A DNA stretch of 64,000 bases from an uncultured Acidobacteriota bacterium (GCA_963707795.1 OY970174.1:2906206-2970205); one strand, 5' to 3'; shown: positions 37,604-52,869, counted from the stretch's first letter. Numbers and translations: made by a program. Notes: generated by a model from the sequence alone, not told the origin.

Positions 37604-37868
37604 CGGCCCGCCGCCGCCGCCCGAGGGCGATGGCGGCGCGGTCGTACCGTCGCCGGCGACGGAGCGGTTCCTGTCCTGCCGGTGGCGCAAGCCCGCCGAA
37701 AACGGCGCTCCCGACCACTGCACGCATCGCGACGTGCTTCCGATGGCGGGCATCGCCGGCTTCGTCCCCGACTCGTGGTGCCCCGACTGCGCCTTCTACA
37801 AGGCCAAGCGGACGCCGCGCAAACGGCCGGAGGAGACCCCGGCCGACGAGTCGTGGCGCCGCTGGTAA
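37584..37868 (+). CDS. Small Cys/His-rich hypothetical protein
   Basis: TTG start after GAGG overlapping the helicase end; SCRW..DHCTH..WCPDC; GC3-biased codons. Confidence 0.55.
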   Translation: MDSSFNNGPPPPPEGDGGAVVPSPATERFLSCRWRKPAENGAPDHCTHRDVLPMAGIAGFVPDSWCPDCAFYKAKRTPRKRPEETPADESWRRW

Positions 37869-37920
37869 AGGCGCCGTCCCGGGCTCGAGTTCGTCCCGCG
37901 TGCGCGCGGCGCCACGCCTG

Positions 37921-39051
37921 TCACGAGCCCAAGCGCTGCATGGCCTGCGCCGCGAGCTTCAGCGCGCCGCCCCGATCCGCCGCTGCGGTCAGGTAGTCGA
38001 CGCGCAGGTAGCGGTCGCCTTTCAGGAACATCAGCGCCCCGGTCATCCCGTCCACGCGGCCTTTGTCCCACGGCCCCTCGATCGCCGCTTTCTCGAGCGG
38101 AGCGACCGCACCGACGAGCGCACCAATCCCGCCGCCGATGTTGAAGGTCGACGCGCCATCGCTCCATTCCGGCGTGATGATGAACGCGCGGTGGCCGGGC
38201 GTGAAGTACGCGCACGCCTTGCCCTTGTCGTACGCAAACGGCGTGTCCTCGACCGCCCGGTAGGGATCGACCACGAGGGGCCCGAGCACCGCTTCGGCTT
38301 CGGCGCGCGTCAGCAGGCTGCACGGATTGCGATCGCCGCCACCCAGCGACAGGACCTGGTAGGTGTTCTCCGCGGCAAACGGCAGGTCGGGTATGCGGTC
38401 GCGCACGTGAGCAGCCAGTTCGATTTGTCGCTCCCTGGTAATCTCAGGCGGCGAAAACACCGAGATCGAGACGTGGCCGACACGTCCGATCCAGGTATAC
38501 GGCATGCCGCTGGCCGAGTCCCAGCCCGGCGGCGGAGCGGCCTTTTTCGCAGCCGCGGACGAGGGCTGGCCCAACTCCCTGGCGAACATCTTCCCGACGG
38601 CCGCCGTGGCCAGGTCGCCGACGATACTGCCGCCTTTCGGGTCGACGGTGACCCTGACCAGCGAATCGAAGTCGCGATCCTCGCCGTCGCGGCCCTTGAT
38701 GCCGTCGATCTCCCGCATCTTGCGGCGGAGTTCGATCATTCTGGTGAACGCCGCGCTCTTCTCGGCCAACGGGTAGGTGCACTCATTGCCCGCCGCGCGA
38801 GGCTGGCCCTCGAGCGTGCCAATGATCCGTTCGACCTCCGCGACGGGAATCCACCCGCAGGCGTCATCGGGTTTGCTCGCGGTCTTCACGGCCGCGGGTG
38901 GCGGGTCGGCCGTGGGTGGCGGGTCGCCCGCGGGTGCCGCCGCTCCTCCGGCGCTGGCCCGGTCCCCGCCCGGGGATCCACACGCGGCGATGGCGATCAG
39001 GACGGCAACGACGGCGAGTCGCGGCGCAAGACGGGAAAGGGATCGCACCAT
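37921..39051 (-). CDS. Lipoprotein with two DUF3558-like repeats
   Basis: Lipobox IAAC, Pro/Ala linker, repeats DACGWIP.AEVERIIG..CTY and NPCSLLT.AEAEAVLG..CAY. Confidence 0.75.
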   Translation of the reverse strand: MVRSLSRLAPRLAVVAVLIAIAACGSPGGDRASAGGAAAPAGDPPPTADPPPAAVKTASKPDDACGWIPVAEVERIIGTLEGQPRAAGNECTYPLAEKSAAFTRMIELRRKMREIDGIKGRDGEDRDFDSLVRVTVDPKGGSIVGDLATAAVGKMFARELGQPSSAAAKKAAPPPGWDSASGMPYTWIGRVGHVSISVFSPPEITRERQIELAAHVRDRIPDLPFAAENTYQVLSLGGGDRNPCSLLTRAEAEAVLGPLVVDPYRAVEDTPFAYDKGKACAYFTPGHRAFIITPEWSDGASTFNIGGGIGALVGAVAPLEKAAIEGPWDKGRVDGMTGALMFLKGDRYLRVDYLTAAADRGGALKLAAQAMQRLGS

Positions 39052-39086
39052 CAGGACATCCTCGCGGTCCCCGACCTGCGGCACAA

Positions 39087-39151
39087 CTACCCGCATGGGT
39101 AGGGTGTCCGCCGGGATCGTCGATCAATGGACCCTACCCGGCTGGGTAGTT
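39087..39151. promoter_or_regulatory. Pair of palindromic operator boxes in a divergent promoter
   Basis: CTACCC-GCAT-GGGTAG (39087-39102) and CTACCC-GGCT-GGGTAG-TT (39134-39151). Confidence 0.8.
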
Positions 39152-39185
39152 TCGATGCGCTGGTCGCAGCGGATACTGTCCGCCC

Positions 39186-40490
39186 GTGAGCGCGGCGATA
39201 CGGTCAGGGGCGTTGGCATTGATGTGGCTCCCCTGCCTCGCGTGCGGGCCCTCGTCACCGCCAGCAAAGACTCGGGTGCAGCCAGCTGCCGCGGCACGAC
39301 CATCGACGGAGAGCCCGCAACCGTCGAACGGCGCCGCCCCGGCGGACCCGTCGACGTCGGGCGGTGTGGCCGGGACCCTCGTGGACGCATTCAGCGCGGC
39401 CACGGGCTCCGGACCACAGGGTATCGAAGCCGACGGCGACTGTCCGATTCTCTACCCTCCACCCGACGACGAGATCGCCGAGCAGGCGGACGCCATCGTG
39501 CCGTTGAAGGTCGGCATGACACTGTCGCACCTGTGGCGCACGATCGACTCACCGGATGACATCGAATGCCTCTCACACGTCGACCGTGTCAGCGCCGAGT
39601 CGGTGCGCGTGTCGAACACCTGCCTGACGGGCAAGGGCGACACCAGCTTTCCTCGAAGTACGTGCCGATCTGACATGCGGAAAGCCCGCGTGTACCAAAC
39701 GATGGTGGGCAGTGCCTCCCCCGAAACGATCCTTGGTGCCACCAGCTATAGCCTCTCGCGCGACGCATTCGTCGAGCTGAAGCGTGACGGAACAACCCGG
39801 CATCAGTACATCGAGTTGAAGTCCAAGGATGGCGGCCCCTTGGCCCGTCGGAGCTTCTTCCAGGTCACGCTCGAAGGGACGCTCACTCTCGAGGGTCGCG
39901 GGGCGATGACGGCGATCGTCAACGAAGCGCCGACGGACCTGCCGGTCCTGAAACTGGCGGGCACGCTGCGGGGCACGGCCCACGACCAGCCGCGCGAGAC
40001 ACGCGTCAGCGCTGCGGTGATCGACGACGAACGCTTCCCGTTGATGTTGGAATATCGGCTGCTCGATCTCGGCGCGCACGAGTTCTCGGTGCGCTACACG
40101 AAGATCTCCTACCCGACGGAGGGCACGATCGAGAAGCGCCTGGCGGAAGCCAGGCGGGTCGACGTGTACGGCATTTACTTCGACTTTGCCAGCGATCGCA
40201 TTCGCACGGAGTCGGAACCGGTGCTGAGCGAGATTGCTGACGCGTTGAAAAAGAACCCGGACTGGACCGTGAGCATTGCCGGACACACCGATAACGTCGG
40301 CAGTGAGGCGGCGAATCTCGACCTCTCGCAGCGCCGCAGCGCCGCGGTTCGGAGGGCGCTCGTCGAGCATCATGGCATCGCCGCCGACCGGCTGGGCACG
40401 ACGGGACACGGCGAAGGCGCGCCCAAGGATACCAACGAGACGCCGGAAGGCCGTGCACGCAATCGCCGGGTGGAATTGGTGCGCCGATGA
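39186..40490 (+). CDS. OmpA-C (peptidoglycan-binding) domain lipoprotein with unknown N-domain
   Basis: Lipobox CLAC; YGIYFDFAS, IAGHTDNVG, LSQRRSAAV, GRARNRRVEL. Confidence 0.88.
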   Translation: MSAAIRSGALALMWLPCLACGPSSPPAKTRVQPAAAARPSTESPQPSNGAAPADPSTSGGVAGTLVDAFSAATGSGPQGIEADGDCPILYPPPDDEIAEQADAIVPLKVGMTLSHLWRTIDSPDDIECLSHVDRVSAESVRVSNTCLTGKGDTSFPRSTCRSDMRKARVYQTMVGSASPETILGATSYSLSRDAFVELKRDGTTRHQYIELKSKDGGPLARRSFFQVTLEGTLTLEGRGAMTAIVNEAPTDLPVLKLAGTLRGTAHDQPRETRVSAAVIDDERFPLMLEYRLLDLGAHEFSVRYTKISYPTEGTIEKRLAEARRVDVYGIYFDFASDRIRTESEPVLSEIADALKKNPDWTVSIAGHTDNVGSEAANLDLSQRRSAAVRRALVEHHGIAADRLGTTGHGEGAPKDTNETPEGRARNRRVELVRR

Positions 40491-40569
40491 CCCTGGTTTC
40501 GGACGCCTGACGGGCCCCGCTCATTAACCTCCAGCGCAACCGTCGCGACTTTCCCCGCAAAACCTCCAC

Positions 40570-40587
40570 CTACTCACTCGGGTAGTT
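40570..40587 (+). promoter_or_regulatory. Operator box copy
   Basis: CTACTC-ACTC-GGGTAG-TT, followed by -10-like TAAGGT at 40610. Confidence 0.72.
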
Positions 40588-40679
40588 TCGGGCCCGATGG
40601 ACCGACTGGTAAGGTTGGACCGGTTCCCCATCGACTCGGCCGCGTGGTCCATCGAGCGAAGCAGAACCGGGTGAGAGCC

Positions 40680-41354
40680 ATGATTCCTCCGCCAATCCGA
40701 CGTGTCGTCACGTGCGTGCCTGCGGCCGCTACCGCCACATTCGTCCTCGCCGCGATGGCATCGGTCGCCGCCGTGGGGCACAACTCCCAGACGGCAGGGC
40801 CGCAGCCGGCGAGTGCCGCTTGCATTGCGATCGTTCTGCCCAGCGCGCAAGGCGTAGACGGAAGCGCCACCGATTTCGGCACGTCGCTGCGGGAGCTGTT
40901 CATGAGTTATCTGACCGGGCCGTCGTTGCGAGCAATTGCCCTGGACGCCCGGCTCGCGTCGCAGGCGATGGAGGAAGCGCGGCAGAAGGAGTGCGGCTAC
41001 ATCCTGACGACAACGGTCACCCGCAAGCGCGACGATGGCGGCGGCCTCGGGCGGGTGTTGGGGCAGGCGGCAGGAACGGCGGCCTGGCATGTGGTGCCAT
41101 ACGGCGCTGGTGCCGGCGCTGCCGCGGCTCGCGGCGCCGCGATTGCCGGCGGGCAGGCCGTCTCGACCATGGCGGCGACGACGCGTGCCAGGGATGAGGT
41201 ACGGCTCGACTATCGCTTCGGACCGCTGGACACGGCCGCGCGCTCGACCCCCCGGAGCGAGAAGCGGAAGGCGAGGAGCGATGGGGAGGACCTGCTGACG
41301 CCGCTCGTCGAGCGCGCGGCGGAGGCGATCGCCGCGAGCGTGGCCAAGAAGTAG
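40680..41354 (+). CDS. Hypothetical exported protein
   Basis: Hydrophobic N-terminus, two Cys in the mature part, Gly/Ala glycine-zipper-like segment; preceded by an operator box. Confidence 0.7.
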   Translation: MIPPPIRRVVTCVPAAATATFVLAAMASVAAVGHNSQTAGPQPASAACIAIVLPSAQGVDGSATDFGTSLRELFMSYLTGPSLRAIALDARLASQAMEEARQKECGYILTTTVTRKRDDGGGLGRVLGQAAGTAAWHVVPYGAGAGAAAARGAAIAGGQAVSTMAATTRARDEVRLDYRFGPLDTAARSTPRSEKRKARSDGEDLLTPLVERAAEAIAASVAKK

Positions 41355-41360
41355 TCCTGC

Positions 41361-42002
41361 CTAGATCAACCGTTCCCGCAACGCCTTGGCGACCGCTTCG
41401 GTCTTCGAGTGGACCTGAAGCTTGCCGTAGATGTTCTTCAGGTGAAACGACACGGTGTTCACGCTGATCCGCATCACATCGGCGGCGGTCTTCTTGTGGT
41501 GGCCGTCGACGAGTAGGCGGAGCAGCTCGTTCTCCTGTGGCGTGAGATGGTAGGACGCGCGCGGCGGCGGCCGAAAGGTGCGAAACACCTTGACGACGCG
41601 CCGCGCGACTTCCGGAGACATCGGGGCGCCGCCGTTGGCCGCCTCTTTCAGCGACTCGAGCAGCCGCTCGGGCGGCGTGTTCTTCAGCAGGTACCCCGAG
41701 GCCCCCGCACATAGTGCGTCGAAGACGTGGTCATCGTTGTCGTGCACGGTCAACGCGACGATGGGAAGGGTGGCAAAGCGCTCGCGAATCTTCCGGATCC
41801 CGTCCAGACCCGACATGCCGGGCAGGCGGAGATCGGTGAGCAGCACATCGGGCTGGTCGCCCTCCAACCAGCCAATGGCCTCTTCCATCGTCCGGAAGCT
41901 CCGCTGACAGCGAAAGCCCTCGGTGTCGTCGATCAGCAACGCCAGCCCTTCGCGCACGTCGTGCTCGTCCTCGACGATGACAACGGACAGCCGATTCGTC
42001 AT
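41361..42002 (-). CDS. NarL/FixJ family response regulator (REC + LuxR HTH)
   Basis: IVEDE, PDVLLTDLRLPGMSG, GASGYLLK, LTPQE..LL, TVSFHLKNIYGKL. Confidence 0.95.
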   Translation of the reverse strand: MTNRLSVVIVEDEHDVREGLALLIDDTEGFRCQRSFRTMEEAIGWLEGDQPDVLLTDLRLPGMSGLDGIRKIRERFATLPIVALTVHDNDDHVFDALCAGASGYLLKNTPPERLLESLKEAANGGAPMSPEVARRVVKVFRTFRPPPRASYHLTPQENELLRLLVDGHHKKTAADVMRISVNTVSFHLKNIYGKLQVHSKTEAVAKALRERLI

Positions 42003-42061
42003 GACACGGGGTTCGGGAACAGCGCGAGAGTACGCCGGCATGGGTTGTCCTGTCACCTACC

Positions 42062-43255
42062 TCATGAGGTAGCGACGGCCGCGCGCGCGCGGCCGCGAAG
42101 CGCCAGCGTCAGGCGCACGGTGGTGCCGCTGCCGGGCGCCGAGACGATCGAGAGCGTGGCGCCGATGCGCTGCGCCCGGCGCTGCATGTTCACGAGACCG
42201 TTTCCGTCGGACGCCCGCTGCGGGTCGAAGCCGATGCCGTCGTCGGCGATGCGCAGGTCGAGCGCTCGTCTGGTACTGCGCACCGTAATGGCGAGGTGAC
42301 GGCAGTGGGCATGGCGGGCGGCATTGTTGACGGCTTCCTTGAAAATCAGGAACACATCCCGCCGAAGGTCCATCGCCACCGGCGGGGCGAGCCCGGCGTC
42401 GCTGACATCGAATCCGAGCGCCAGCGCCGCATCGGTCGCCGTCTCCTCGGCGTGGGCGCGCATCTTGCGCACGACGTCGACCAGGCGGTCCCGCTCGGGA
42501 TCGATCGCCCAGACGATGTCGCTCATCCCACTGACCGACTCGCGGGCAATGTGCGCGATGGCGCTCAGCTGCGCCGCGACCGCGGGCGACGGCTTTTGTC
42601 GGCGTATCAGCTCGCTGAGCACCGCGACGCGGGTCAGGTTCGCGCCGATGTCGTCGTGCAGATCGGTTGCGATACGCGTGCGCATGTTCGCCATCTCCAC
42701 GAGTCGTCGCGTGCGGCGGCGGTACCCGGTGTAGGTCGTCACAATGACCAGGCCGGTCGAGAACAGCAGGAACTCGGCGCGCCGCCAGAACGGCGGCACC
42801 ACCCGGAACGCCACCGTCGCCACTCGGGAGCTGACCATCCCGTCGGCCGCAAGCGCGCGGACAGCGAGGGCGTAGGTGCCCGGGGCGATCCCGACGTAGT
42901 TCACCGCGCCGTGATCGGAGAGGGCCTTCCAGTCGAGGTCCACGCCTTCGAGGCGATATTGGTAGGCGACACCGCTCGACGAGGCGAACCACTGCGGCAC
43001 GAATGCGATGCGAACGGCGTCGCCATGCCGGCCCTGTGCGTGGATGGCCATGGCGCCGGTCAAGCCGGTTGCGGGTGAGATATCTGCGGCAACCGTCGCC
43101 TGGGGATCGAATGTCGTATCCAGCCGGCCGTCAGCCCATAGTCCCACCACTACCACGGACGCAATCACCAGCGTGCCGACCACCACCGGGCGCAGCGATT
43201 GCGCGCGCAATTGGGGGCTTCTGCGTCGACCTGGCGACAGACGGGCCGTGAGCAT
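42062..43255 (-). CDS. Sensor histidine kinase (TM - Y_Y_Y - TM - HisKA_3 - HATPase)
   Basis: YQYRLEGVD.DW...PGTY.L.VRA, PPFW, RIATDLHDDIG, KEAVNNAARHA, DDGIGFD, GNGL.NM. GGAG RBS. Confidence 0.9.
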   Translation of the reverse strand: MLTARLSPGRRRSPQLRAQSLRPVVVGTLVIASVVVVGLWADGRLDTTFDPQATVAADISPATGLTGAMAIHAQGRHGDAVRIAFVPQWFASSSGVAYQYRLEGVDLDWKALSDHGAVNYVGIAPGTYALAVRALAADGMVSSRVATVAFRVVPPFWRRAEFLLFSTGLVIVTTYTGYRRRTRRLVEMANMRTRIATDLHDDIGANLTRVAVLSELIRRQKPSPAVAAQLSAIAHIARESVSGMSDIVWAIDPERDRLVDVVRKMRAHAEETATDAALALGFDVSDAGLAPPVAMDLRRDVFLIFKEAVNNAARHAHCRHLAITVRSTRRALDLRIADDGIGFDPQRASDGNGLVNMQRRAQRIGATLSIVSAPGSGTTVRLTLALRGRARAAVATS

Positions 43256-43372
43256 CGGGGCGTTCTCCGGGCGCGGACCCGACGTACGAGTGCGCGTACT
43301 GGGGAACGCCCGGTTTGAACGGAGAAGCCCTCACGGCCACAGGCGCGCGACCAGGGCGCGCCGAGACCGGAA

Positions 43373-46177
43373 TCAGTGCTGGATCTGCGCGACCCAGCCC
43401 TTGACCTTGTCGAGGAGCGGCCGGTTCTCGGCGGGAATCGAACTTGCCTGGCGCAGCAAACCGTCGTACCCCGCATCGATCAACGGCTCTCCTTCGGCGG
43501 GGCGGCCGAGGGCGGCGAGGGTGGCTCCCAGCATGCTTTGCGCGTAGTAGCGACGCCAGGCATCGGACTTGATGGTCTCGTAGCCGTTCATCGCCTCGGC
43601 GAAATAGGCGTGCGCCGCCTCATGGTCCCGTTGCTCGAACGCGATGTCGCCCAGCGAGACCAGCACGGCCAGCGTATTCACATGCGCCGCTCCGAGCACG
43701 CGCCGGCGGACCTCGAGCACCTGCCGGAACAGCGGGGTTGCTTGCTCCAGCTTGCCCTGCCGCCGGTACGAGTCCGCCAGGTTGTTCATGGTGGCGGCCA
43801 CCAGCGGGTTATCGGCGCCGAGCCGCCGCCGTCTGGCTTCGAGCACTTCGATCAGCAGCGGCTGCGATTGCGCGAACAGACCTTGGGCGTCATACGTGAG
43901 TGCGAGGCTGTTCTGGCTGGTCAGCGTGTCGAGGTGATCGGGACCGAGCGGACGCCGGGCCTCGACGACGGCCTCGAAGACGGTGGCGGCCTCGTCGTAC
44001 TTGCCTTGATGGCGGTAGGCCACACCCAGGCCATTCATCGACGTGAGCGTGCTCGGGTGACCGGGGCCGAGGACGCGCTGCTTGACCGTGACGAGCCGCC
44101 GGTAGACGGCCACTGCCTCGTCGAATCTGCCGAAATCGACGGCCATGGCGGCGAGATTGTTCATCACGGACAGCGTGTCGGCGTGTTCCTCGCCCAGTGT
44201 CTGGCGTTGCACCCGCAAGACCTCGGTCAACAGTTGCAGGGCCTGGTCGCCACGCCGCAGGGTGTGGGACACCCCGGCGAGGTCGGCCATGACGGCCAGC
44301 GTGTCACGATGCCTCGCGCCGAGCAGACGCTTCGTACCCTCCAGCGCGTCGATGAGTAACGCCTCCCGGCGCTCGTACTGAGCCAGGTGACCGTAGTTGT
44401 TGGCCAGGTCCGTCAGGCTGGTCAGCGTGTCGCGATTGTCGCTCCCGAGCACGCGCCTGCGGATGTCCAACGCGCGTTCCAGGTGCGGCATTGCCTCGGC
44501 GTGAAGTCCCATGCCGCCATAAGTGCGGCCGATCGTCTGGTGCATCGCGGCTTCGACGGCCGGTTCGCGATCGAATCGGCCGGGCAGACGCGCGGCCGCG
44601 CGATCGAGCGCGGCCCTGACGGTCAGATTCGGATCCGGCGTCAGGTTCTGCGCCGCCTGCTGTCGTGTGCTGGCCTGGTTGAGCAGGTCGTCCTGCAAGA
44701 ACGCGGTGGTGGCGGTCGCGATCGCCGCCTGCCGATCGGCCCGGCGCGCGGCTTCGAGGGCGCTGTTGCGTTCCTGCTCGGCACGGATCCGCTCGCGCGT
44801 CGCGCTCTCTTCCGCGCGCAGGGCCCGGTCGCGCTCGTCGGTCGCCCGCCGTTCCGCGGCTGTCGCCCGGTCGCGCTCGTCGGTCGCACGGAGTTCGGCG
44901 GACGTTGCGCGATCGCGGGCGAGCAGGGCGGTTTGTTCCGCCCGATCGGCGCGCACCGCTTCCCAGGACGTCGCGGCGATGCCCGCGACGAGAGTGGCGA
45001 AGACCACGGCCGCGGCGCTGACCGCCAGCCGGTGCCGGCGGACGAAGCGAGCCGTGCGATACGGCACGCTCGCCTGGCGCGCGACGATCGGGAGCCGATC
45101 GAGGTGGCGGCGAATATCCTCCGCCAACTGCTCCACCGACTGATAGCGCCGCTGGCGATCGCGCGCCAGCGCCGTCAGGACGATGGTATCGAGGTCGCCG
45201 CGGAGGCGACGGCGCAGACGATCATCGCCCTGCCTACACGTGGTGCTGGGCTTCGGCGGATCCACGGTGGTAATGAGGCGAGCAACATCGGCCGGCGTGC
45301 GCGTCTCGAACGCGAACGGCCCGCGGCCGGCCAGCAGCTCGTACAACAACACGCCCAGCGAATAGACGTCGCTGAGCGCGTCGGCCCGCTGGCCCATCAG
45401 CTGCTCGGGGCTGGCATATTCCGGCGTGAGCGCGCGAAACGCCGCGGCGGTGACCAGCGTCTCGCCGCTACTGGCTGCATGCATGATTCTCGCGATGCCG
45501 AAGTCGAGCAGCTTCGGGACGGCGTCGCGCGAGACGAGGATGTTCGAGGGCTTGATGTCTCGATGCACCACCAGCCGCTGATGCGCATACGAGACCGCCG
45601 CACACACACGCACGAACAGCTCGAGCCGGTCATCGACCCCGAGCTGCCGTTCCTCGCAGTACTGGTGAATCGGCTGTCCGTCCACGTACTCGATCACGAA
45701 GTACGGCCGTCCGTCGGCCGACGTCCCGCCATCCAGCAGCCGCGCGATGTTCGGGTGTTCGAGATCGGCGAGGATCTGGCGCTCGTCGCGGAACTGACGT
45801 AACACGGCGTCGGTGTCCATGCCGCGTTTGATCAGCTTGATCGCCACCTGCTTGTGGAACTGCTCGTCGGCGCGATCGGCGAGATAGACGGCTCCCATCC
45901 CGCCGCGGCCCAACTCACGCACGATGCGATACGGCCCGATCAACGTGCCGGCGGGCACGGCGTCGGACGCCGCCAGCAGCCGGAGTGCGCTGGCGGCAAT
46001 CGGCTCGTGCAAGAACGCGTGCGCGCTGTCGTGCGCCCGAAGAAGCCGCTCGACCGCGGCCGCCAGCGGCTCGTTGCCCGCACATTGCGCGTCGAGAAAT
46101 GCCCGTCGATCGCCGGCGTTCTGCGCCAGGGCCGCGTGGAAGAGATCGTTGATGGCACGCCAGTCGTTCGCGTTCAT
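43373..46177 (-). CDS. Hanks-type Ser/Thr kinase with TM, coiled coil and TPR array
   Basis: GRGGMG, VAIK, HRDIKPSN, DFG, TPEYASPE; 42-aa TPRs (LG.xH.DTL..MNNLA). Confidence 0.95.
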   Translation of the reverse strand: MNANDWRAINDLFHAALAQNAGDRRAFLDAQCAGNEPLAAAVERLLRAHDSAHAFLHEPIAASALRLLAASDAVPAGTLIGPYRIVRELGRGGMGAVYLADRADEQFHKQVAIKLIKRGMDTDAVLRQFRDERQILADLEHPNIARLLDGGTSADGRPYFVIEYVDGQPIHQYCEERQLGVDDRLELFVRVCAAVSYAHQRLVVHRDIKPSNILVSRDAVPKLLDFGIARIMHAASSGETLVTAAAFRALTPEYASPEQLMGQRADALSDVYSLGVLLYELLAGRGPFAFETRTPADVARLITTVDPPKPSTTCRQGDDRLRRRLRGDLDTIVLTALARDRQRRYQSVEQLAEDIRRHLDRLPIVARQASVPYRTARFVRRHRLAVSAAAVVFATLVAGIAATSWEAVRADRAEQTALLARDRATSAELRATDERDRATAAERRATDERDRALRAEESATRERIRAEQERNSALEAARRADRQAAIATATTAFLQDDLLNQASTRQQAAQNLTPDPNLTVRAALDRAAARLPGRFDREPAVEAAMHQTIGRTYGGMGLHAEAMPHLERALDIRRRVLGSDNRDTLTSLTDLANNYGHLAQYERREALLIDALEGTKRLLGARHRDTLAVMADLAGVSHTLRRGDQALQLLTEVLRVQRQTLGEEHADTLSVMNNLAAMAVDFGRFDEAVAVYRRLVTVKQRVLGPGHPSTLTSMNGLGVAYRHQGKYDEAATVFEAVVEARRPLGPDHLDTLTSQNSLALTYDAQGLFAQSQPLLIEVLEARRRRLGADNPLVAATMNNLADSYRRQGKLEQATPLFRQVLEVRRRVLGAAHVNTLAVLVSLGDIAFEQRDHEAAHAYFAEAMNGYETIKSDAWRRYYAQSMLGATLAALGRPAEGEPLIDAGYDGLLRQASSIPAENRPLLDKVKGWVAQIQH

Positions 46178-46755
46178 GACGCCGTTCCCAGGTCCGCCGC
46201 ATTGATCGCGTCGTACAGCCATGCGCGCGCGAAGCTCCATTCGCGCTCGATCGTCGCCGGCGACAGCTGCAGCACTTCGGCCATCTCTTCGGTAGTGAGA
46301 CCACCGAAGAACTTCAGCTCCACGATGCGGCCTTTTCGCGCGTCAATCGCCTGCAGGCGATTGAGGGCGTCGTGGACCTCGATGAGGTTCGCCGCCTGAC
46401 GGTCCGGCACGTCGAGGGCGACGGTCAGCGGCACGCGCGCCATCTGGCCGCCGCGTTTGGCCGCCGCGCGCGTGCGCGCGTGGTTCACCAGCACGCGCCG
46501 CATCATGATGGCCGCCAGCCCGATGAACTGCGCACGGTTTCGCCAATCGACCCGGCGCTGATCGATCAGCCGCAGGTAGGCCTCATGGACGAGGGCGGTG
46601 GGCTGCAAGGTGTGATCCGGCCGTTCCTGACGCAGGTACGACCGTGCAATCCGGCGCAGCTCTTCGTAGACGATGGGCGACAGATCGTCCCGCGCCCGGT
46701 CGTGGCCGCTGCCCCAGTCCAAGAGAAGCTCGGTCGCGGCACCCGGTGCGGACAT
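46174..46755 (-). CDS. ECF-type sigma factor, kinase-associated (ECF43/TIGR02999-like)
   Basis: VYEELRRIA, HTLQPTALVHEAYLRL, MRRVLVNHAR..A.KRGG, REWSFARAWL. ATGA overlap with the kinase. Confidence 0.92.
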   Translation of the reverse strand: MSAPGAATELLLDWGSGHDRARDDLSPIVYEELRRIARSYLRQERPDHTLQPTALVHEAYLRLIDQRRVDWRNRAQFIGLAAIMMRRVLVNHARTRAAAKRGGQMARVPLTVALDVPDRQAANLIEVHDALNRLQAIDARKGRIVELKFFGGLTTEEMAEVLQLSPATIEREWSFARAWLYDAINAADLGTAS

Positions 46756-46901
46756 CTCGATCCTGCTGAGCCCTTTTGGGTTGAGTGCCCGAGTCTAGCA
46801 CGGTGGCGCGCAGCGGGCTGCTGGTGCCGGGAATCTCGCGCCGTTCGTGCGTCTTGAGGTGAGGCAAAGGACCGCTCGACGTCCCCGGGCATCGTTTACG
46901 A

Positions 46902-47117
46902 GGTCACCGACACCATCGGCAGCGATCGCTACGACGATTCGCTCTCGGCGGAGCGGGCGGCTGCCGTCAGGCGGCGCTGGTGCGGGACCTCGGCGTCGAC
47001 GCGGCCAGGCTCTCGATGGTCGGGTACGGGGAGAGCCGGCTGATCGAACGCAGCGACACCCTGGCCGGCAGGGCGCGCAACCGCCGCGTCGAGCTGGTGG
47101 GCGCCGGCGGCCAGTGA
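46902..47117 (+). pseudogene. Orphan OmpA-C domain remnant
   Basis: With two frame corrections it reads GH(T)DTIGSDRYDDSLSAERAAAVR.ALVRDLGVDAARLSMVGYGESRL...GRARNRRVELV. No N-terminal part is present. Confidence 0.78.
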
Positions 47118-47121
47118 AGAC

Positions 47122-47610
47122 TCACTTCAACTTCGGGATGATCGCGTTCGCCAGCGCGATCGTGTTCGGCTTCATCTGTTCGGCCGTGCCCTGGAACGGC
47201 ACGCCCATCTGGATGGTGAACGTGCGCGCACCGGTATAACCGATCAACTCGGCGAAGAGGTTTCTGTTGTTGTGGAAGTACGCACGATCGCCGACTCCTG
47301 GCACAGGCACCCAGTCCTTCTTCTGCTTCGCGGTCTGGTCGATGAAGGCCGGCGAGAACGCGTCGATCTGCAGCCTGATGTCGGCATAGTCACAGGCGGA
47401 GCCGGACGTGCCGACCGGCTCCTCCTGCGGCGGCATGTCGAGAACGAGCTTGTTCACCGCCCCGGAGACCTTCATCACGAGGTCTTTCGGCAGCAGCGAG
47501 CACGCACCGAGGGGTTGCGTGGCGGTCTGCGCCACCGCGCCCGCGTCGAGCCTCACCGCATCGAACGCGAGCACGGAGATGATGAGCAGTGACATGGCGA
47601 TGTGCCGCAT
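47122..47610 (-). CDS. Secreted DUF3558-like protein
   Basis: AGGAG RBS, signal peptide, ACSLLPKDLV, SACDY, PVPGVGDRAY. Confidence 0.75.
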   Translation of the reverse strand: MRHIAMSLLIISVLAFDAVRLDAGAVAQTATQPLGACSLLPKDLVMKVSGAVNKLVLDMPPQEEPVGTSGSACDYADIRLQIDAFSPAFIDQTAKQKKDWVPVPGVGDRAYFHNNRNLFAELIGYTGARTFTIQMGVPFQGTAEQMKPNTIALANAIIPKLK

Positions 47611-47796
47611 GATTCGTTCTCCTACGCGCCTGGGTGTATTCCGCGGTTCACAGGACGAGCGCACTCTGCCAGGACGCAGCGCGTCGAAGGCTGGCAACGA
47701 CATCACCTACGTCGCGACACTCATCCGCGTCGGCCGCGTTGATGTCTATCCTGCCTGCGATGATCGGTTTCCACGGACGGGTAGACGCGTCACCCC

Positions 47797-48864
47797 TCAC
47801 TGTCTGGTCAGCTCGACACGCCGGTTCTGCGCCCGACCCTCCGGGGTGTCGTTCGACCCCTTCGGCGACGCCTCACCCTTGCCACCGGTCGACAGGCGCC
47901 CGGGTACGACCTTGAACCGCGCGACCAATGCGTCGCGCACCGCCGCGGCACGCTGCTGCGACAGCTCCAGGTTCGCCGACTCGCTCCCGATGCCATCGGT
48001 GTGCCCGTCGATGCGCAACTTCCACTCCGGGTTGCGTTGCAGCGCGTCGGCAATTTCCTGCAGCACCCGTTCCGATTCAGGGCGGATGGCCGCGCTGGCG
48101 AAACCGAAATAGATGCCGTAGACCTCGGTGGTACGTCGCTCGCTGAGATCGCGTTCGAGGCTCTCGGCCACCGGAAAATCCAGCTTCAGAATCTTCGAAT
48201 TGCGGGTCTCGTCCCGCCACCGGAGGATGATCGGGTTGTCGGGATCATCGAGGACGTAGATGTCGGCGCGGCGCGTCAGGGCGCCGTTGCCGACCTCCGC
48301 GCGAGCGTGGATCGCCGGCAGCTCCACGACGCGTCCATTGACGAGCACGGGCACGGCCACGGGCGTCGTTTCGATGCGACTGACTGTCCCGTTCAACGAC
48401 TGCACAGCGGTTTGATCGCGTGTCGCGGCCGAGGTCGCGACCAGCAGCGTCAGTGCCGCTCGGCCGTCGCGCCGCAGGTCGTCGATGACGGCACCGGAGA
48501 AGAACGGCGTCGTCCCGGGAAAGGCCTCCGGATCGTCCTCGCCGTACCAGTTGCGCATCGTACGGGCGGTGCGCTGGTCGTGCATCAGGACTCTGCGCAC
48601 CGCAGTGGCCGATTGCGTACCGCCCGACGGATCCGGCGCTTCGAAGGAGAACGTCAGGCGGTAAGCTTCCGGCGTGACGGATTGCACTCTGAGGATGACC
48701 TCGGCGTCGCCGGCGGCATGGCTGACGGCACCAATGATCGTCAGCCCGGCGACCAGCGGCACACGCACGGGCTCGCGCCCTTGCCCTGACACCGCAGTAC
48801 AGCAGATGCCGAATCCAGTCAGGCCAGCCGCCAGACTACGCGCGACGCGCGAACGAATGTGCAT
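47797..48864 (-). CDS. Exported OmpA-C domain protein, paralogue of 39186..40490
   Basis: Signal peptide; YGIYFGFAS, IDGHTDGIG, LSQQRAAAV, GRAQNRRVEL. Confidence 0.88.
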   Translation of the reverse strand: MHIRSRVARSLAAGLTGFGICCTAVSGQGREPVRVPLVAGLTIIGAVSHAAGDAEVILRVQSVTPEAYRLTFSFEAPDPSGGTQSATAVRRVLMHDQRTARTMRNWYGEDDPEAFPGTTPFFSGAVIDDLRRDGRAALTLLVATSAATRDQTAVQSLNGTVSRIETTPVAVPVLVNGRVVELPAIHARAEVGNGALTRRADIYVLDDPDNPIILRWRDETRNSKILKLDFPVAESLERDLSERRTTEVYGIYFGFASAAIRPESERVLQEIADALQRNPEWKLRIDGHTDGIGSESANLELSQQRAAAVRDALVARFKVVPGRLSTGGKGEASPKGSNDTPEGRAQNRRVELTRQ

Positions 48865-48921
48865 CTGGCTGGGGCCTCGAACAGAGCCGTATCTGTAGCA
48901 CCCGCCGCGTCGGCCTCACAA

Positions 48922-48980
48922 CTACCCGGAAGGGTAGGTGACGCGGCCGGCGGACCGATGGCCTACTCAGGCGGGTAGTT
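48922..48980. promoter_or_regulatory. Second pair of palindromic operator boxes in a divergent promoter
   Basis: CTACCC-GGAA-GGGTAG (48922-48937) and CTACTC-AGGC-GGGTAG-TT (48963-48980); -10-like TACCAT at 49003. Confidence 0.8.
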
Positions 48981-49019
48981 ACGTTGCGGTCGGCCGGCGA
49001 TCTACCATCCCAACCGTCA

Positions 49020-49711
49020 ATGCTCAGCGCAGCCTCGGTGCTCGCGGCGATGGTGATGGTGCTGCTGGCGAACACGCCGGCGCACCCGAGCCGTGCGGCC
49101 AAGCAGACCGTCCAGCCGCGGAGAAGACGGGGATTGCCGAGTGCGACGAGTACGTCGTCATGGCCTCGGCGTGTCTGCCGCGCATGTGCGAGGTGGAACG
49201 GGGGCTGAGCGAGCTCGAACTGTCGCTCCATCGGGAGATGCTGGCGAAGACGGTCGAGCTCAAGGGCCGCGACGAAGCCGCGAAGGCGTGCGCGCGGGAT
49301 ATCGTCGGGCTGCTGCAGGACGACCCGTATGGCTGCTACGACGCGGAGCGCGCCAGGCGGGGCATGCCGGCCGCCGGCATTCAGGACGTGCAGGTCCGTC
49401 CGCAAGCCACCAGCGTGACGATCTCGTTTCGGGCGGGTCCGCCGGCCTCAGGCGACGGGCCCTGGGAGGTCGCCATCGTCCTCGAGGACCTCGAGCCTCT
49501 TGTCCAGTACGTCCCGATGCGAACCGGCAACGCCTTCGTGGTCAATACCGCCGGCGACCGGCCCGTGACCACCGTGAGCGAAGCGACCGGACAGCCATCG
49601 AACACACCGCAGCCGATCCGCCTCGACGCTGGCGTGCCGTATTGCTTCACGATCAAATCGGCGGGCGGCGAGGAACGCCGGGGGCACTTCACGACCCTGC
49701 GCGCGCAGTAG
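49020..49711 (+). CDS. Hypothetical exported Cys-containing protein (probable frameshift at ~49115)
   Basis: Signal peptide MLSAASVLAAMVMVLLA lies in one frame. The body KTGIAECDEY..C..C..C..C plus a beta-rich C-domain lies in another. Confidence 0.55.
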
Positions 49712-49822
49712 GTATCCCCCGCCCGGCAACAACAACTGCCGCGCCGTACTGGCCGGCACGACAACGCCGCGGGGCGGGCTGTCCTGCCCCCGAGATGGTC
49801 GTGCTTCCGCGTGGACGGGCCA

Positions 49823-52498
49823 CTAGTCCGCGCGCATCGCCGTGACCGGCGCCACCCGCAGGGCGCGCCGCGCCGGCACGTACGACGCGAACAGCACCGC
49901 GCCCGCGGTGAGCAGCACGACCGCGCCGAACGCGACCGGATCGGTCGCGGCAACCCCGAACAGCATGCCCTCGACCACCTGCGTGAGCGCCAGCGCCGCG
50001 GCGAGTCCCACGACGATGCCGGCGGCGGCGAGGCGGGCGCCGGTGCCCATGACCAGGTGCAGGACATCGGCGGAGGCGGCGCCGAGCGCGAGGCGGACGC
50101 CGATCTCGCGCGTGCGTTCGGCGACGAGGTACGAGACCAGGCCGTAGATGCCGAGCGCGGCGAGCAGCAGCGCCGTGGCGGCGAAGACGCCAACCAGCGT
50201 CAGGCTGAACCGCCGCCCGGCCAGCGCGCGATCGACCGCGTCCTCGACGGTCCGCGCCTGCACGGGCAGATCGGCGTCGATCGTGCGGATGACGCGGGTC
50301 GCTTCCGCCGCCAGGCTGCCGGCGCGCTCGGCACGCAGCACGACGGTGAACCGCGACGCCAGGCGCTGGCGGTAATGCCCGTAGAACAGCGGTCCCGGCA
50401 GCGTCTCCGGCGACAGCTCGCGCACGTCGCCGACGACGCCCACGACGCGGAAGCCGCGCAAGTCGCCGTCCATGTTGCCGAACTGGACGTAGCGGCCCAG
50501 CGGGTCCTGGTCCGGCCATTTCGCCGCCGCCAGCGACTCGCTGATGACGGCGACGTGCGGCGCGTCGGGACCGTCGCCCTCGTCGAACAGCCGCCCGCGC
50601 ACGAGCGGGATCCCCATCGCCGTGAAATAGCCCGCGCTGGCGATGCGGTAGCCGGCAAAGCCCGCGCGCGCTTTCACCTCGTCGCCGAGCCGGGCCAGGT
50701 CGTCGACGCTCTGGAGCTCGTCGGCCCGGGTCATCTCGATGAACTGGCCGTTGGGGAAAAAGCCGGTGGCGAGCGGGAACGTGCTGACCAGGCCCGCCTG
50801 CTGCACGCCGGGCAGCGCGCCCAGGCGCGTCAGCATCTCCTGCTGCGCGGCGCGGCGGCGCTCCTGCACGCCCGGATCGCGCGAGGAGACCCAGGTCAGG
50901 TCGAGCAACTGGGCGCCGTCGGTGCGGAAGCCCGGGCTGACCGCCAGCAGTGCGCCGAAGCTGCGGCCGAGCAGGCCGGCGCCGGCCAGCAACACGATCG
51001 TCAACGCCACCTGCGCCACGACCAGCCCCTGCCGCACGCGCTCGCTGCTGCGCCCGCCGGCCATCGTCCGCGTGCCCTCGCTCAACGTGTCACGAATCTG
51101 CGCCTGAGCCGCGCGGGCCGCGGTGGCCACCCCCAGCAACACCGCCGTCAGCAGCGCGAGCCCGACGGCAAACCACAGCACGGTCCAGTCGATCGTGATG
51201 TCCTGCATCCGGGGCAGGTTCCCCGGCTGCAGCGCGGTCAGCACGCGCACGCCGAGCCAGGCGATCGCGACGCCGACCGCCGTGGCCGCGGCCGACAGGA
51301 CCAGCGCCTCGGCCAGGAGCTGGCGCGTGATGCGCGCGCCGCTGGCGCCGACGGCCAGCCGCACCGCGATCTCGCGCCGCCGGGTCGAGGCGCGCGCCAG
51401 CTGCAGGTTCGACACGTTGAGGCACGCGATCACCAGGAGCAACAGCGCGGCGCCGAACAGCAGCAGCAGGACGGGACGGGTCGCCGCCGTCAGCTGTTCG
51501 CGGAGCGGCACCGCGGTGGCATCCGACATCCAGGTCTGGTCGCCGTGCTCTTCTTTCAGCGCACGCGACAGCGCGCTCAGCTCGGTCCGCGCCGTTTGCA
51601 GGCTCACGCCGGGCTGCAGGCGCCCCACGACGAGCCAGTTGTGCGCGGTCCGCGACGTCTGTGGCGGCGTCCGCTCGCGCGCGGTCCAGAACTCGCTCGC
51701 CGCCGGGTAGTCGAAGCCGGGCGGCATGACGCCAATCACCTGGTGCATCGCCTCGTCGATCCGCAGCGTCAGGGTGTCGAGCGGCGCGCCGCCGAGCCGG
51801 GCCTGCCACAGCCGATAGCCGACGACGACCGCCGCCGCGGCGCCGGTCCGCGTCTCGTCGTCGCGGAACGCGCGTCCGACGATCGGGGCGACGCCCATCA
51901 CCGTGAAGAACTCGCGCGAGACCGCCGCGCCAGCCGTCATCGCGGTGTCGGCGCCGAACCCCACGGGGACCGATCCGGCGCCCATCTGCGCCATGGCCTG
52001 CACGCTGCGCGTGCGCGCCTTCCAGTCGGCGAAGTTGGGCTCGGACACCGTGTTGTTGCGCTGCCCGGTCGCGTCGATCTGGAACAGCCGCACGATGCGG
52101 TCGGGGTCGGGGTACGGCAGCGGGCGCAGCAGCACGCCCTCGACGACGCTGAACACGGCCGTGGCCGCGCCGATGCCGAGGCCCAGCGTCATGATGGAGA
52201 CGCCGGCGAAGGCGCGGGCGCGGCCGAGCACCCGGGCCCCGTAGCGAAGGTCGCGGGCCAGGTCCTCGAGCATGGCCGGGCGGAACTCGTCGCGGGCCTG
52301 CTCCTTCACGTGCTCGACGCCGCCGAACTTCACGTGGGCGCGCCGCCGCGCCTCGCGCGGATCCATGCCCCGCGCGATGTTCTTGGCCGTCTGCTCGTCG
52401 AGGTGAAAGCGAATCTCCTCGTCGAGCTCACGTTCGATGCGGGTGCGGGTCACGACCGATCGCCACCGCCGCATGCGCTCGCTCCAGGGTTCTGCCAT
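49823..52498 (-). CDS. ADOP family (acidobacterial duplicated orphan) MacB-like ABC permease
   Basis: ELDEEIRFH..ARRRA..FGG, DLRYGAR.L, TLGLGIGA.TAVFSVV, two FtsX halves (RRREIAVRLAVGA; RTREIGVRLALGA). Confidence 0.93.
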   Translation of the reverse strand: MAEPWSERMRRWRSVVTRTRIERELDEEIRFHLDEQTAKNIARGMDPREARRRAHVKFGGVEHVKEQARDEFRPAMLEDLARDLRYGARVLGRARAFAGVSIMTLGLGIGAATAVFSVVEGVLLRPLPYPDPDRIVRLFQIDATGQRNNTVSEPNFADWKARTRSVQAMAQMGAGSVPVGFGADTAMTAGAAVSREFFTVMGVAPIVGRAFRDDETRTGAAAAVVVGYRLWQARLGGAPLDTLTLRIDEAMHQVIGVMPPGFDYPAASEFWTARERTPPQTSRTAHNWLVVGRLQPGVSLQTARTELSALSRALKEEHGDQTWMSDATAVPLREQLTAATRPVLLLLFGAALLLLVIACLNVSNLQLARASTRRREIAVRLAVGASGARITRQLLAEALVLSAAATAVGVAIAWLGVRVLTALQPGNLPRMQDITIDWTVLWFAVGLALLTAVLLGVATAARAAQAQIRDTLSEGTRTMAGGRSSERVRQGLVVAQVALTIVLLAGAGLLGRSFGALLAVSPGFRTDGAQLLDLTWVSSRDPGVQERRRAAQQEMLTRLGALPGVQQAGLVSTFPLATGFFPNGQFIEMTRADELQSVDDLARLGDEVKARAGFAGYRIASAGYFTAMGIPLVRGRLFDEGDGPDAPHVAVISESLAAAKWPDQDPLGRYVQFGNMDGDLRGFRVVGVVGDVRELSPETLPGPLFYGHYRQRLASRFTVVLRAERAGSLAAEATRVIRTIDADLPVQARTVEDAVDRALAGRRFSLTLVGVFAATALLLAALGIYGLVSYLVAERTREIGVRLALGAASADVLHLVMGTGARLAAAGIVVGLAAALALTQVVEGMLFGVAATDPVAFGAVVLLTAGAVLFASYVPARRALRVAPVTAMRAD

Positions 52499-52533
52499 GC
52501 CAGCCTCGCCCGCGGGCCGCCGCCCCGCGCCCG

Positions 52534-52869
52534 CTACATTGCCGCGTCCAGCACCAGGTTGATCGCCCGTGACAGCCGCCGCCACTCCGCGAGCTCGTCG
52601 CTCAGGTGCCGGCGGCCGAGGCGGGTCAGCGTGTAATAGCGGGCGCGGCGGTTGTTCGCCGTCACCTTCCACGCCGACGTGATGAGCCCCTGCCGCTCGA
52701 GCCGGTACAGCGCCGGATAGAGCGTGCCCTGTCCGAGCTGGAGCACCCGCTCCGACCACTGCTCGATCCGCTCGGTGATGCCCCAGCCGTGCATCGGCTC
52801 GAGCTGCAGCGCCTTGAGCACCAGCATGTCGAGGGTGCCCTGCAGGACGTCGATCTTGCCTGTGCCCAC
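52534..52869 (-). CDS. PadR family transcriptional regulator, acidobacterial type
   Basis: LQGTLDMLVLK, HGWGI, GTLYPALYRLE, NNRRARYY.LT; directly upstream of the ADOP gene. Confidence 0.95.
   Translation of the reverse strand: MGTGKIDVLQGTLDMLVLKALQLEPMHGWGITERIEQWSERVLQLGQGTLYPALYRLERQGLITSAWKVTANNRRARYYTLTRLGRRHLSDELAEWRRLSRAINLVLDAAM

Follow-up and report, generated by a model that had tools for sequence, protein, structure and literature searches.

Which protein reads a palindrome that recurs in front of several genes of an uncultured soil Acidobacteriota bacterium, and with what effect on those genes? The palindrome, CTACYC-N4-GGGTAG, lies in a 64,000-nucleotide stretch of DNA (GCA_963707795.1, OY970174.1:2906206-2970205; hereafter the window), around genes for a two-component system and for putative envelope proteins. 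An earlier note on this DNA had proposed that it is the binding site, next to the -35 position, of the response regulator encoded at 41361-42002. We analysed the window together with the genome that contains it (G000, a single contig, C1, of 5,350,129 bases, in which the window is C1:2906206-2970205), using a gene map based on Pfam and NCBIfam scans plus translations of open reading frames (ORFs). Five comparative lines support the proposal, because the regulator gene has a box of its own, the box is present at 18 of 22 related regulator loci, box counts track the regulator from genome to genome, neighbouring genes for a sigma factor and a Ser/Thr kinase are not conserved with the box, and the recognition helix of the regulator is unique. 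With a probability that we put at roughly 0.78, the palindrome would be the operator of this NarL/FixJ-family regulator, which would activate its own gene and an envelope regulon.

The five copies of CTACYC-N4-GGGTAG reported for the window are all present, starting at 39087, 39134, 40570, 48922 and 48963, and the pattern had 0 matches in 100 dinucleotide-preserving shuffles of the window. Across the whole 5.35-Mb genome the strict motif occurs at six sites, these five and C1:5111133. When the TT extension is included (CTAC-N6-GGGTAGTT) there are five matches genome-wide, every one of them in this block and each oriented with GGGTAGTT towards the flanking gene. Relaxing the motif to CTACYY-N4-RRGTAG gives nine places in the genome; the same relaxed half-sites at spacers N2, N3, N5 and N6 give 1, 0, 0 and 0 places, with none for the everted arrangement. 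At six strict and nine relaxed sites in 5.35 Mb, the motif is not frequent at random genome-wide. The observation is thus confirmed and extended from five to nine sites.

Six of the nine boxes lie in the window. Box A (39087-39102, minus strand, CTACCCATGCGGGTAG) reads towards gene A, and box B (39134-39149, plus strand, CTACCCGGCTGGGTAG) reads in the opposite direction. Box C (CTACTCACTCGGGTAG) is at 40570-40585 on the plus strand, and the second outward-facing pair consists of box D (48922-48937, minus strand, CTACCCTTCCGGGTAG, towards gene D) and box E (48963-48978, plus strand, CTACTCAGGCGGGTAG). The five copies of the earlier count stand, but a relaxed copy inside the block had been overlooked: box RR (42057-42072, minus strand, CTACCTCATGAGGTAG), which overlaps the stop codon of the histidine kinase gene and lies upstream of the regulator ATG at 42002. 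Nor is the motif confined to the block, outside which no copies had been noticed, since three more lie beyond the window. The first, at C1:805421 (about 0.80 Mb; CTACCCCCATAGGTAG), precedes a paralogous pair of genes for an OmpA-family protein and an A-like lipoprotein. The second, C1:5111133, is the sixth strict site and lies upstream of a third OmpA-family paralogue, and the third, C1:5112654, precedes a gene for a secreted protein of 350 aa, after which comes a paralogue of 385 aa. A 'weak half-site' claimed at 47769-47784 exists as sequence but is without statistical weight: the genome contains 843 copies of GGGTAG alone, the partner half agrees at 3/6 positions, no -35-like hexamer follows, and the site scored under the 14-bit cut-off of the weight-matrix scan. 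We also considered it as a decayed box, an intact box preceding the orthologous gene in genome G041, and rejected this when pairwise alignment showed no positional homology.

All nine boxes of this genome directly abut a -35-like hexamer, which is followed after 16-18 nt by a -10-like hexamer, the layout of a sigma-70-type promoter. The -35-like hexamers are GTGACA (three times), TTGTGC, TTGTGA, TTTCGA, TTTCGG, TTACGT and TTACGG; the -10-like hexamers are TACCGT (three times), TACTCT, TACAGA, TACCAT, TAAGGT, GATACT and GAGGAT. At box A, TTGTGC (39086-39081) is separated by a 17-nt spacer from GAGGAT (39063-39058), ahead of the ATG at 39051. Box B has TTTCGA (39150-39155), the shortest spacer (16 nt) and GATACT (39172-39177) ahead of a GTG at 39186. 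The remaining four promoters in the window share an 18-nt spacer: TTTCGG (40586-40591) and TAAGGT (40610-40615) at box C; GTGACA (42056-42051) and TACTCT (42032-42027) at box RR, ahead of the regulator ATG at 42002; TTGTGA (48921-48916) and TACAGA (48897-48892) at box D, ahead of the ATG at 48864; and TTACGT (48979-48984) and TACCAT (49003-49008) at box E, ahead of the ATG at 49020. GATACT, TAAGGT and TACCAT do start 23-25 nt past the box, as had been described. The other shared features that had been remarked upon, namely the TT extension and the CACAAC common to the left copies, arise because the box runs into the -35-like hexamer. Likewise, the CACAACTACCCG shared by the left copies is present and is accounted for as the reverse complement of the box plus TTGTG, the start of TTGTGC and TTGTGA. 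Similarity among the copies stops at the box and this hexamer.

Assuming a transcription start 7 nt past the predicted -10, the box centre would be at -44.5 at six sites (18-nt spacer), at -43.5 at two (17-nt spacer) and at -42.5 at one (16-nt spacer), and the box spans about -51 to -36 if the -10 hexamer is taken as -12 to -7. Relative to these predicted hexamers, all 9 sites lie at approximately -41.5 to -44.5, at the -35 of a weak promoter, and no box overlaps the -35 or the -10 hexamer at any of the nine. A strict consensus scan of 37800-49800 found no promoter with at least 9/12 consensus matches, and the core promoters are therefore weak. The -10-like hexamers match the consensus at 3-4/6 and the three GTGACA hexamers match TTGACA at 5/6. 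The start codons of genes A, B and E (39051, 39186 and 49020) lie 6-11 nt past the predicted -10, so that their mRNAs would be leaderless or nearly so. To check the -10 signal we pooled 46 distinct boxes from this genome and 29 related loci, oriented 42 of them by the better -35 match and dropped 4 ties; by this design the -35 signal is circular and the -10 signal is not. TAnnnT at a spacer of 16-18 nt was present at 21/42 pooled boxes, compared with 1/42 in the opposite orientation, and the TAnnnT spacers were 17 (11 boxes), 18 (10) and 19 (1) only.

The putative reader of the box (41361-42002, minus strand, 213 aa) consists of a REC receiver domain (PF00072, 3.9e-26) and a GerE/LuxR-type helix-turn-helix (HTH) domain (PF00196, 8.5e-15). 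Its receiver has Asp57, Thr85 and Lys107, and Asp57 aligns with D58 of the NarL chain, which we take to be Asp59 of NarL. The protein gave full-length alignments to NarL, VraR, DevR and DesR, NarL being its best relative in structure (E 4.6e-27). It reaches no NCBIfam equivalog cut-off (127.6 bits with the NarL model NF007935, against a cut-off of 250), and the adjoining kinase is far under the NarX/NarQ cut-offs of NCBIfam. By domain content, the regulator is best assigned to the NarL/FixJ family and not regarded as a NarL orthologue. The recognition helix (S180-VNTVSFHLKNIY) is unique among the GerE-type HTH domains that tblastn found in this genome; the closest paralogue of the regulator (C1:5260420) has the helix SINTVRRHVMAIY and no box nearby.

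The cognate HisKA_3-type histidine kinase gene (42062-43255, minus strand, 397 aa; Y_Y_Y, HisKA_3 with His200, and HATPase_c) adjoins the regulator gene, and the pair is kept in related loci. Three orthologous kinases with open frames of about 1,040-1,090 aa contain Reg_prop (7e-40 to 1e-46), Y_Y_Y, HisKA_3 and HATPase_c. In the window kinase the Pfam scan detected Y_Y_Y and no Reg_prop match: it is without the propeller sensor of about 650 aa found in its 1,020-1,100-aa orthologues and keeps a short N-terminal segment together with Y_Y_Y, HisKA_3 and HATPase_c.

Conservation ties the box to this kinase/regulator pair. We fetched the loci of relatives of the regulator, 26 from genomes and 60 from metagenomes. 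Where identity is 66% or higher and 300 nt or more are available upstream, the 300 nt ahead of the regulator gene contain CTAC-N8-GTAG in 18/22 loci, placed at the junction of kinase and regulator genes, and at 17 of these 18 the box is followed by a hexamer beginning GTG. In three of the four loci without this pattern (L058, L059 and L070) there is a box with one mismatch followed by GTGACA. Near-duplicates are included (L031/L062, L060/L061, L034/L071 and L058/L059), so the independent number is below 22. At 55-66% identity, 0/18 loci with at least 300 nt upstream have CTAC-N8-GTAG upstream of the regulator gene. The spacing is again sharply defined: the fetched loci, 768,266 bases in total, contain CTAC-N8-GTAG 51 times, with N4-N7 giving 7, 1, 1 and 1 occurrences and N9-N12 giving 4, 4, 0 and 3. 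At many loci a second box stands immediately past the regulator gene, ahead of a TTAC- or TTGT-type hexamer and the next gene, and D-like, A-like, C-like and 194-aa-like genes recur in that place.

The relaxed box also follows the regulator and its target genes from genome to genome. G000 has nine, and the five metagenome-assembled genomes (MAGs) that hold loci L031-L035, with the regulator, have 8, 4, 7, 1 and 2. Among 40 relatives of G000, 26 have none, 11 have one, two have two and one has four. Eight single boxes that we inspected (in G010, G004, G009, G008, G011 and G016, and two in G023) have no regulon homologues within 3 kb and were treated as background; seven of the eight are without a -35-like hexamer. 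The site in G025 (L008) was likewise rejected, with no regulon homologues. In G041, 7/8 boxes are on one contig in a syntenic block, where they precede orthologues of the 194-aa gene, gene C, an OmpA gene, the D operon, gene A and the regulator gene. G006, of the same genus as G000, has two boxes 11 nt apart between divergent orthologues of C (59-60%) and D (57%), both with -35-like and -10-like hexamers, and gene C, which was found in 2/41 genomes (G000 and G006), has a box upstream in both. Boxes are thus present before orthologues in G041, in G006 and at the 18 of 22 regulator loci, and the motif is not absent upstream of orthologues, an outcome that the earlier note had named as counting against its proposal. 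In the same-genus relatives G006, G010 and G004, related kinase/regulator pairs are present, with homologues of A-E absent for about 15 kb around them. Separately, a Verrucomicrobiota-labelled MAG (L040, positions 3968 and 4811; L102) encodes a 40% identical regulator flanked on both sides by CTACTC-N4-GAGTAG and then CTAGGC, which may represent a related operator in a distant clade or convergence.

The recognition helix and the box vary together. Loci with CTAC-type boxes keep [V/I]181-N182, and a sister clade at 61-66% identity has an F181-H182 helix and CTGCAC-N4-GTGYAG at the same two positions. By alignment with NarL, residues 181-182 lie at the N-terminal end of the recognition helix. 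According to PMC10853779, the base-contacting residues of NarL are K188, V189 and K192, which align with S185, F186 and K189 of the window regulator. The change from V181-N182 to F181-H182 together with that from CTAC to CTGC could be a natural specificity switch, giving two orthogonal regulator/operator pairs.

Taken as a circuit, these features suggest the following mechanism. The consensus CTACYY-N4-RRGTAG would present two 6-bp half-sites with a 4-bp spacer to the regulator, which, phosphorylated at Asp57, would bind as a dimer immediately ahead of the -35, with its centre at about -43.5/-44.5. We infer this dyad-symmetric binding from the palindrome, from its conservation beside the regulator gene and from the co-variation of the helix. 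The bound regulator would recruit RNA polymerase in the manner of NarL at yeaR and ogt. It would raise expression of its own gene through an internal promoter that overlaps the kinase stop codon, a positive feedback, and would switch on OmpA-like, peptidoglycan-anchored proteins with a lipid-binding-type barrel, DUF3558-like lipoproteins and small secreted proteins. Of the two steps, binding of the regulator to the box is very probable on comparative grounds, and activation, rather than repression, is the likelier consequence of such binding.

Both the geometry and the position have counterparts among characterised systems. As described in PMC10853779, the 16-bp NarL site at yeaR lies just upstream of the -35 with its centre at -43.5, and the proximal NarL site at ogt is at -44.5. 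The likeness to E. coli NarL at these promoters, with its 7-2-7 sites, extends to a REC plus LuxR-type HTH regulator and to a dyad-symmetric site of 16 bp, its half-sites containing TAC, that lies directly ahead of the -35 (here predicted at -43.5/-44.5). The two differ in that TAC is one base further in here, giving an outer T...A distance of 14 bp, compared with 16 bp for NarL, and in the residues S185/F186/K189 where NarL has K188/V189/K192. The kinase is of the Reg_prop/Y_Y_Y type and not NarX-like, and the targets here are envelope proteins, whereas those of NarL are respiration genes. In Bacillus subtilis, the canonical ComA site, TTGCGG-N4-CCGCAA, consists of inverted hexamers spaced 4 nt apart and lies upstream of the site for RNA polymerase (PMC4797271). 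ComA shares the tetrahelical HTH family and an identical 6-4-6 geometry. It differs in half-site sequence, organism and regulon. On this comparison, the box combines the 6-4-6 geometry of ComA, a NarL-like TACYY half-site one base further in, and a predicted position equal to that of NarL at yeaR and ogt.

LuxR/TraR-type class II activators similarly place an HTH dimer on a palindrome at or overlapping the -35 of a weak promoter, with the lux box near -42.5. They are ligand-binding one-component proteins with 18-20-bp boxes, whereas the system described here has a response regulator, predicted to depend on phosphorylation, and a 16-bp box. On the sensor side, periplasmic propeller/Y_Y_Y proteins are a type known for glycan sensing. 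The orthologous kinases resemble, in Reg_prop plus Y_Y_Y, the sensors of the Bacteroides hybrid two-component systems and the BguR type reported for marine Bacteroidota (10.64898/2026.01.10.698779). They differ from these in that the output here is a separate NarL-type regulator, reached via a HisKA_3 kinase, and in G000 the propeller is missing. We found no published account of this operator/regulator circuit in the open-access literature.

The same evidence bears on three other explanations. The regulator might bind the box and repress, or act dually, its dimer hindering sigma region 4 or the alpha C-terminal domain, with phosphorylation relieving or imposing the block. A site touching the -35 could indeed occlude it, the three GTGACA hexamers are close enough to TTGACA (5/6) that these promoters might fire unaided, and NarL-family proteins repress at some promoters. 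We nevertheless consider repression unlikely: the box overlaps neither the -35 nor the -10 at the nine sites, the core promoters are weak (none reaching 9/12, with -10 hexamers at 3-4/6), and positive autoregulation is the commoner design in two-component systems. The predicted position also equals that of the activating NarL sites at yeaR and ogt (PMC10853779).

A different protein might read the box, namely the extracytoplasmic function (ECF) sigma factor encoded at 46174-46755 with the Ser/Thr kinase, the paralogous regulator at C1:5260420, or an unlinked factor. The ECF sigma factor and kinase genes do lie inside the block, between boxed genes, and G006 has boxes and no close Asn-type regulator that we could find. 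This is improbable, markedly more so than repression, in view of the linkage: homologues of the ECF sigma factor and Ser/Thr kinase were not found within +/-10 kb of the box in L031-L035, the sole ECF match is in the box-less L036, and the kinase/regulator pair alone is always linked to the box. Nor does a dyad-symmetric 6-4-6 palindrome that precedes distinct -35-like and -10-like hexamers look like a sigma-factor promoter, and the paralogous regulator, with its different helix, has no box nearby. Least likely of all, and only marginally credible to us, is that the palindrome is an RNA hairpin with a 6-bp stem and a 4-nt loop, a dispersed repeat or the end of a mobile element. Any perfect palindrome can form a hairpin, and the kinase mRNA presumably includes the copy that overlaps its stop codon. 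Set against this, the similarity of the copies ends with the box and the -35-like hexamer, the spacer is free in sequence and fixed in length, and the -10 signal depends on orientation (the 21/42 versus 1/42 above). No T-run follows the boxes, and a terminator scan gave nothing at them.

Several observations weigh against activation by this regulator, or against parts of that proposal. The pattern read backwards occurs at 16 places, compared with 9 for the relaxed motif; because GATG and CATC words are common in coding sequence, this control is uninformative either way, and it is the spacing controls that carry the argument for non-randomness. The box-centre positions depend on the assumed start 7 nt past the predicted -10, and the strict TAnnnT was found at the expected spacing in just half of the boxes pooled. 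Allowing one mismatch still gives no box at L073 (69% identity), and the 263 nt available for L064 contain none. G006 has CTAC-type boxes, yet the closest regulator found there, at 59% identity, carries a V181-H182 helix and lacks its own box; the G006 contig ends inside the locus. G040, a 2.8-Mb genome of the same order, has 4 relaxed boxes and no close regulator. Its sites L007, L009 and L010, with no regulon homologues and no -35-like hexamer, were rejected, and the G040 boxes are probably due to chance in a genome of different composition. In L060 (1445-1460) and L061 (4391-4406) a box with TTGTCG lies between convergent regulator and D-like genes and points into the 3' end of the D-like gene, an orientation that our model does not explain; it could be an antisense promoter, a relic or have another role. 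As for the co-variation, the distinct boxes of the sister clade, scored with positions 3 and 14 left free, include 9 with G and 3 with A, that is, 3/12 keep the A type. All G-type operators fall in one clade (100/99 support in a maximum-likelihood tree), and the co-variation is therefore a single evolutionary event.

The genes behind the boxes point to the cell envelope. Gene A (37921-39051, minus strand) encodes a putative lipoprotein of 376 aa with a DUF3558 match below threshold; its product matches DUF3558-type clusters, and a paralogue is present in the same genome at C1:802812-803786. Gene B (39186-40490, plus strand, GTG start at 39186) and gene D (47797-48864, minus strand, ATG at 48864) encode OmpA-family proteins of 434 and 355 aa, with the C-terminal, peptidoglycan-binding OmpA-like domain (PF00691, 4.7e-24 and 1.1e-23, respectively). 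Gene C (40680-41354, plus strand, with an alternative GTG start at 40644) encodes a secreted protein of 224 aa of unknown family, which matches hypothetical clusters only in the protein atlas; an assignment to CsgG/LpoB was rejected, the atlas score of 0.88 being under the reliable range. The products of A, C and D have signal-peptide-like N-termini, as read from their sequences. Downstream of D, and possibly co-transcribed with it, is a gene for a secreted protein of up to 194 aa and of unknown family (47122-47706, minus strand). Gene E (49020-49711, plus strand) comprises a signal-peptide-like ORF (49020-49208) and, in a different frame, an ORF of 190 aa (49139-49711), without a family match, and would be either a frameshifted gene or two genes. 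The splits over two overlapping frames in gene E and in the third OmpA paralogue (L029 2178-3490; C1:5111177-5112489) may each be real frameshifts or indel errors of the assembly, which is rated 91% complete. After the ninth box, the tandem 350- and 385-aa secreted paralogues (L029 3741-5992; C1:5112740-5114991) have no Pfam match.

We examined the product of gene D by structure prediction as well. It has 61 homologues at E <= 1e-5, mostly soil-metagenome proteins that are 67-82% identical, and the named ones are of the OmpA family. In the whole-protein model (predicted local distance difference test score, pLDDT, 88.8) the C-terminal part matches the C-domains of OprF and OmpA (E 5.6e-10; template modelling score, TM, 0.79-0.86 normalised to the target). 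The whole-protein fold search recovered the OmpA domain only, and the N-terminal domain was then folded alone. This model (pLDDT 91.1) resembles the half-open beta-barrels BDI_3050, DUF1849 and LmcA (Z 10.7, 10.5 and 10.2; root-mean-square deviation 3.6-4.0 over 151-175 residues) and, more weakly, YmcC, MucB/RseB and LolA. Such a likeness of a predicted fold to lipid-binding-type barrels does not show a common function. Taken together, the regulon would serve envelope remodelling, judging from the domain content of its products.

The remaining genes of the block encode a Ser/Thr kinase with tetratricopeptide (TPR) repeats (43373-46240, minus strand, 955 aa) and the ECF sigma factor (46174-46755, minus strand; PF07638, TIGR02999), and the block is followed by a gene for a MacB/FtsX-type permease (49823-52759, minus strand). 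The ECF sigma factor gene overlaps the Ser/Thr kinase gene by 67 nt, and the pair, flanked by boxed genes, has the orientation of the two-component genes; elsewhere the genome has three more ECF paralogues and many Ser/Thr kinases. G+C content is 66-69% in the block (38001-50000), compared with 70-74% in most of the flanking 2-kb windows and about 70% for the window as a whole. The low G+C content, together with regulon genes of patchy occurrence such as gene C (in 2/41 genomes), fits an accessory and possibly transferred module.

Between the ECF sigma factor gene and the 194-aa gene, at 46858-47117 on the plus strand, lies a frameshifted remnant of an OmpA-like C-terminal domain in two frames, ending ...NRRVELVGAGGQ (stop). 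The truncated kinase, the ECF sigma factor and Ser/Thr kinase genes directly upstream of it and this remnant point to a rearrangement in this lineage. A more speculative idea, which we regard as doubtful, is that the two-component system has been rewired, with box D driving gene D, the 194-aa gene and the genes for the ECF sigma factor, Ser/Thr kinase, histidine kinase and regulator, and with the Ser/Thr kinase supplying the input of the truncated sensor. Were box D to drive this whole minus-strand run, three signalling systems would come under simultaneous feedback from the regulator.

Soils are rich in Acidobacteriota, whose regulatory circuits are, to our knowledge, almost entirely undescribed. 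The sequence alone yields a complete candidate circuit, comprising a kinase, a regulator, an operator, a promoter geometry and an envelope regulon, and it recurs in many soil-metagenome contigs. The circuit is well supported and of an ordinary kind; it would behave like NarL at yeaR and ogt, and it calls for no new mechanism. What it offers is a precise prediction of a 16-bp site, nine promoters and named recognition-helix residues, and, in the two operator types, a possible natural example of an operator and a recognition helix changing together.

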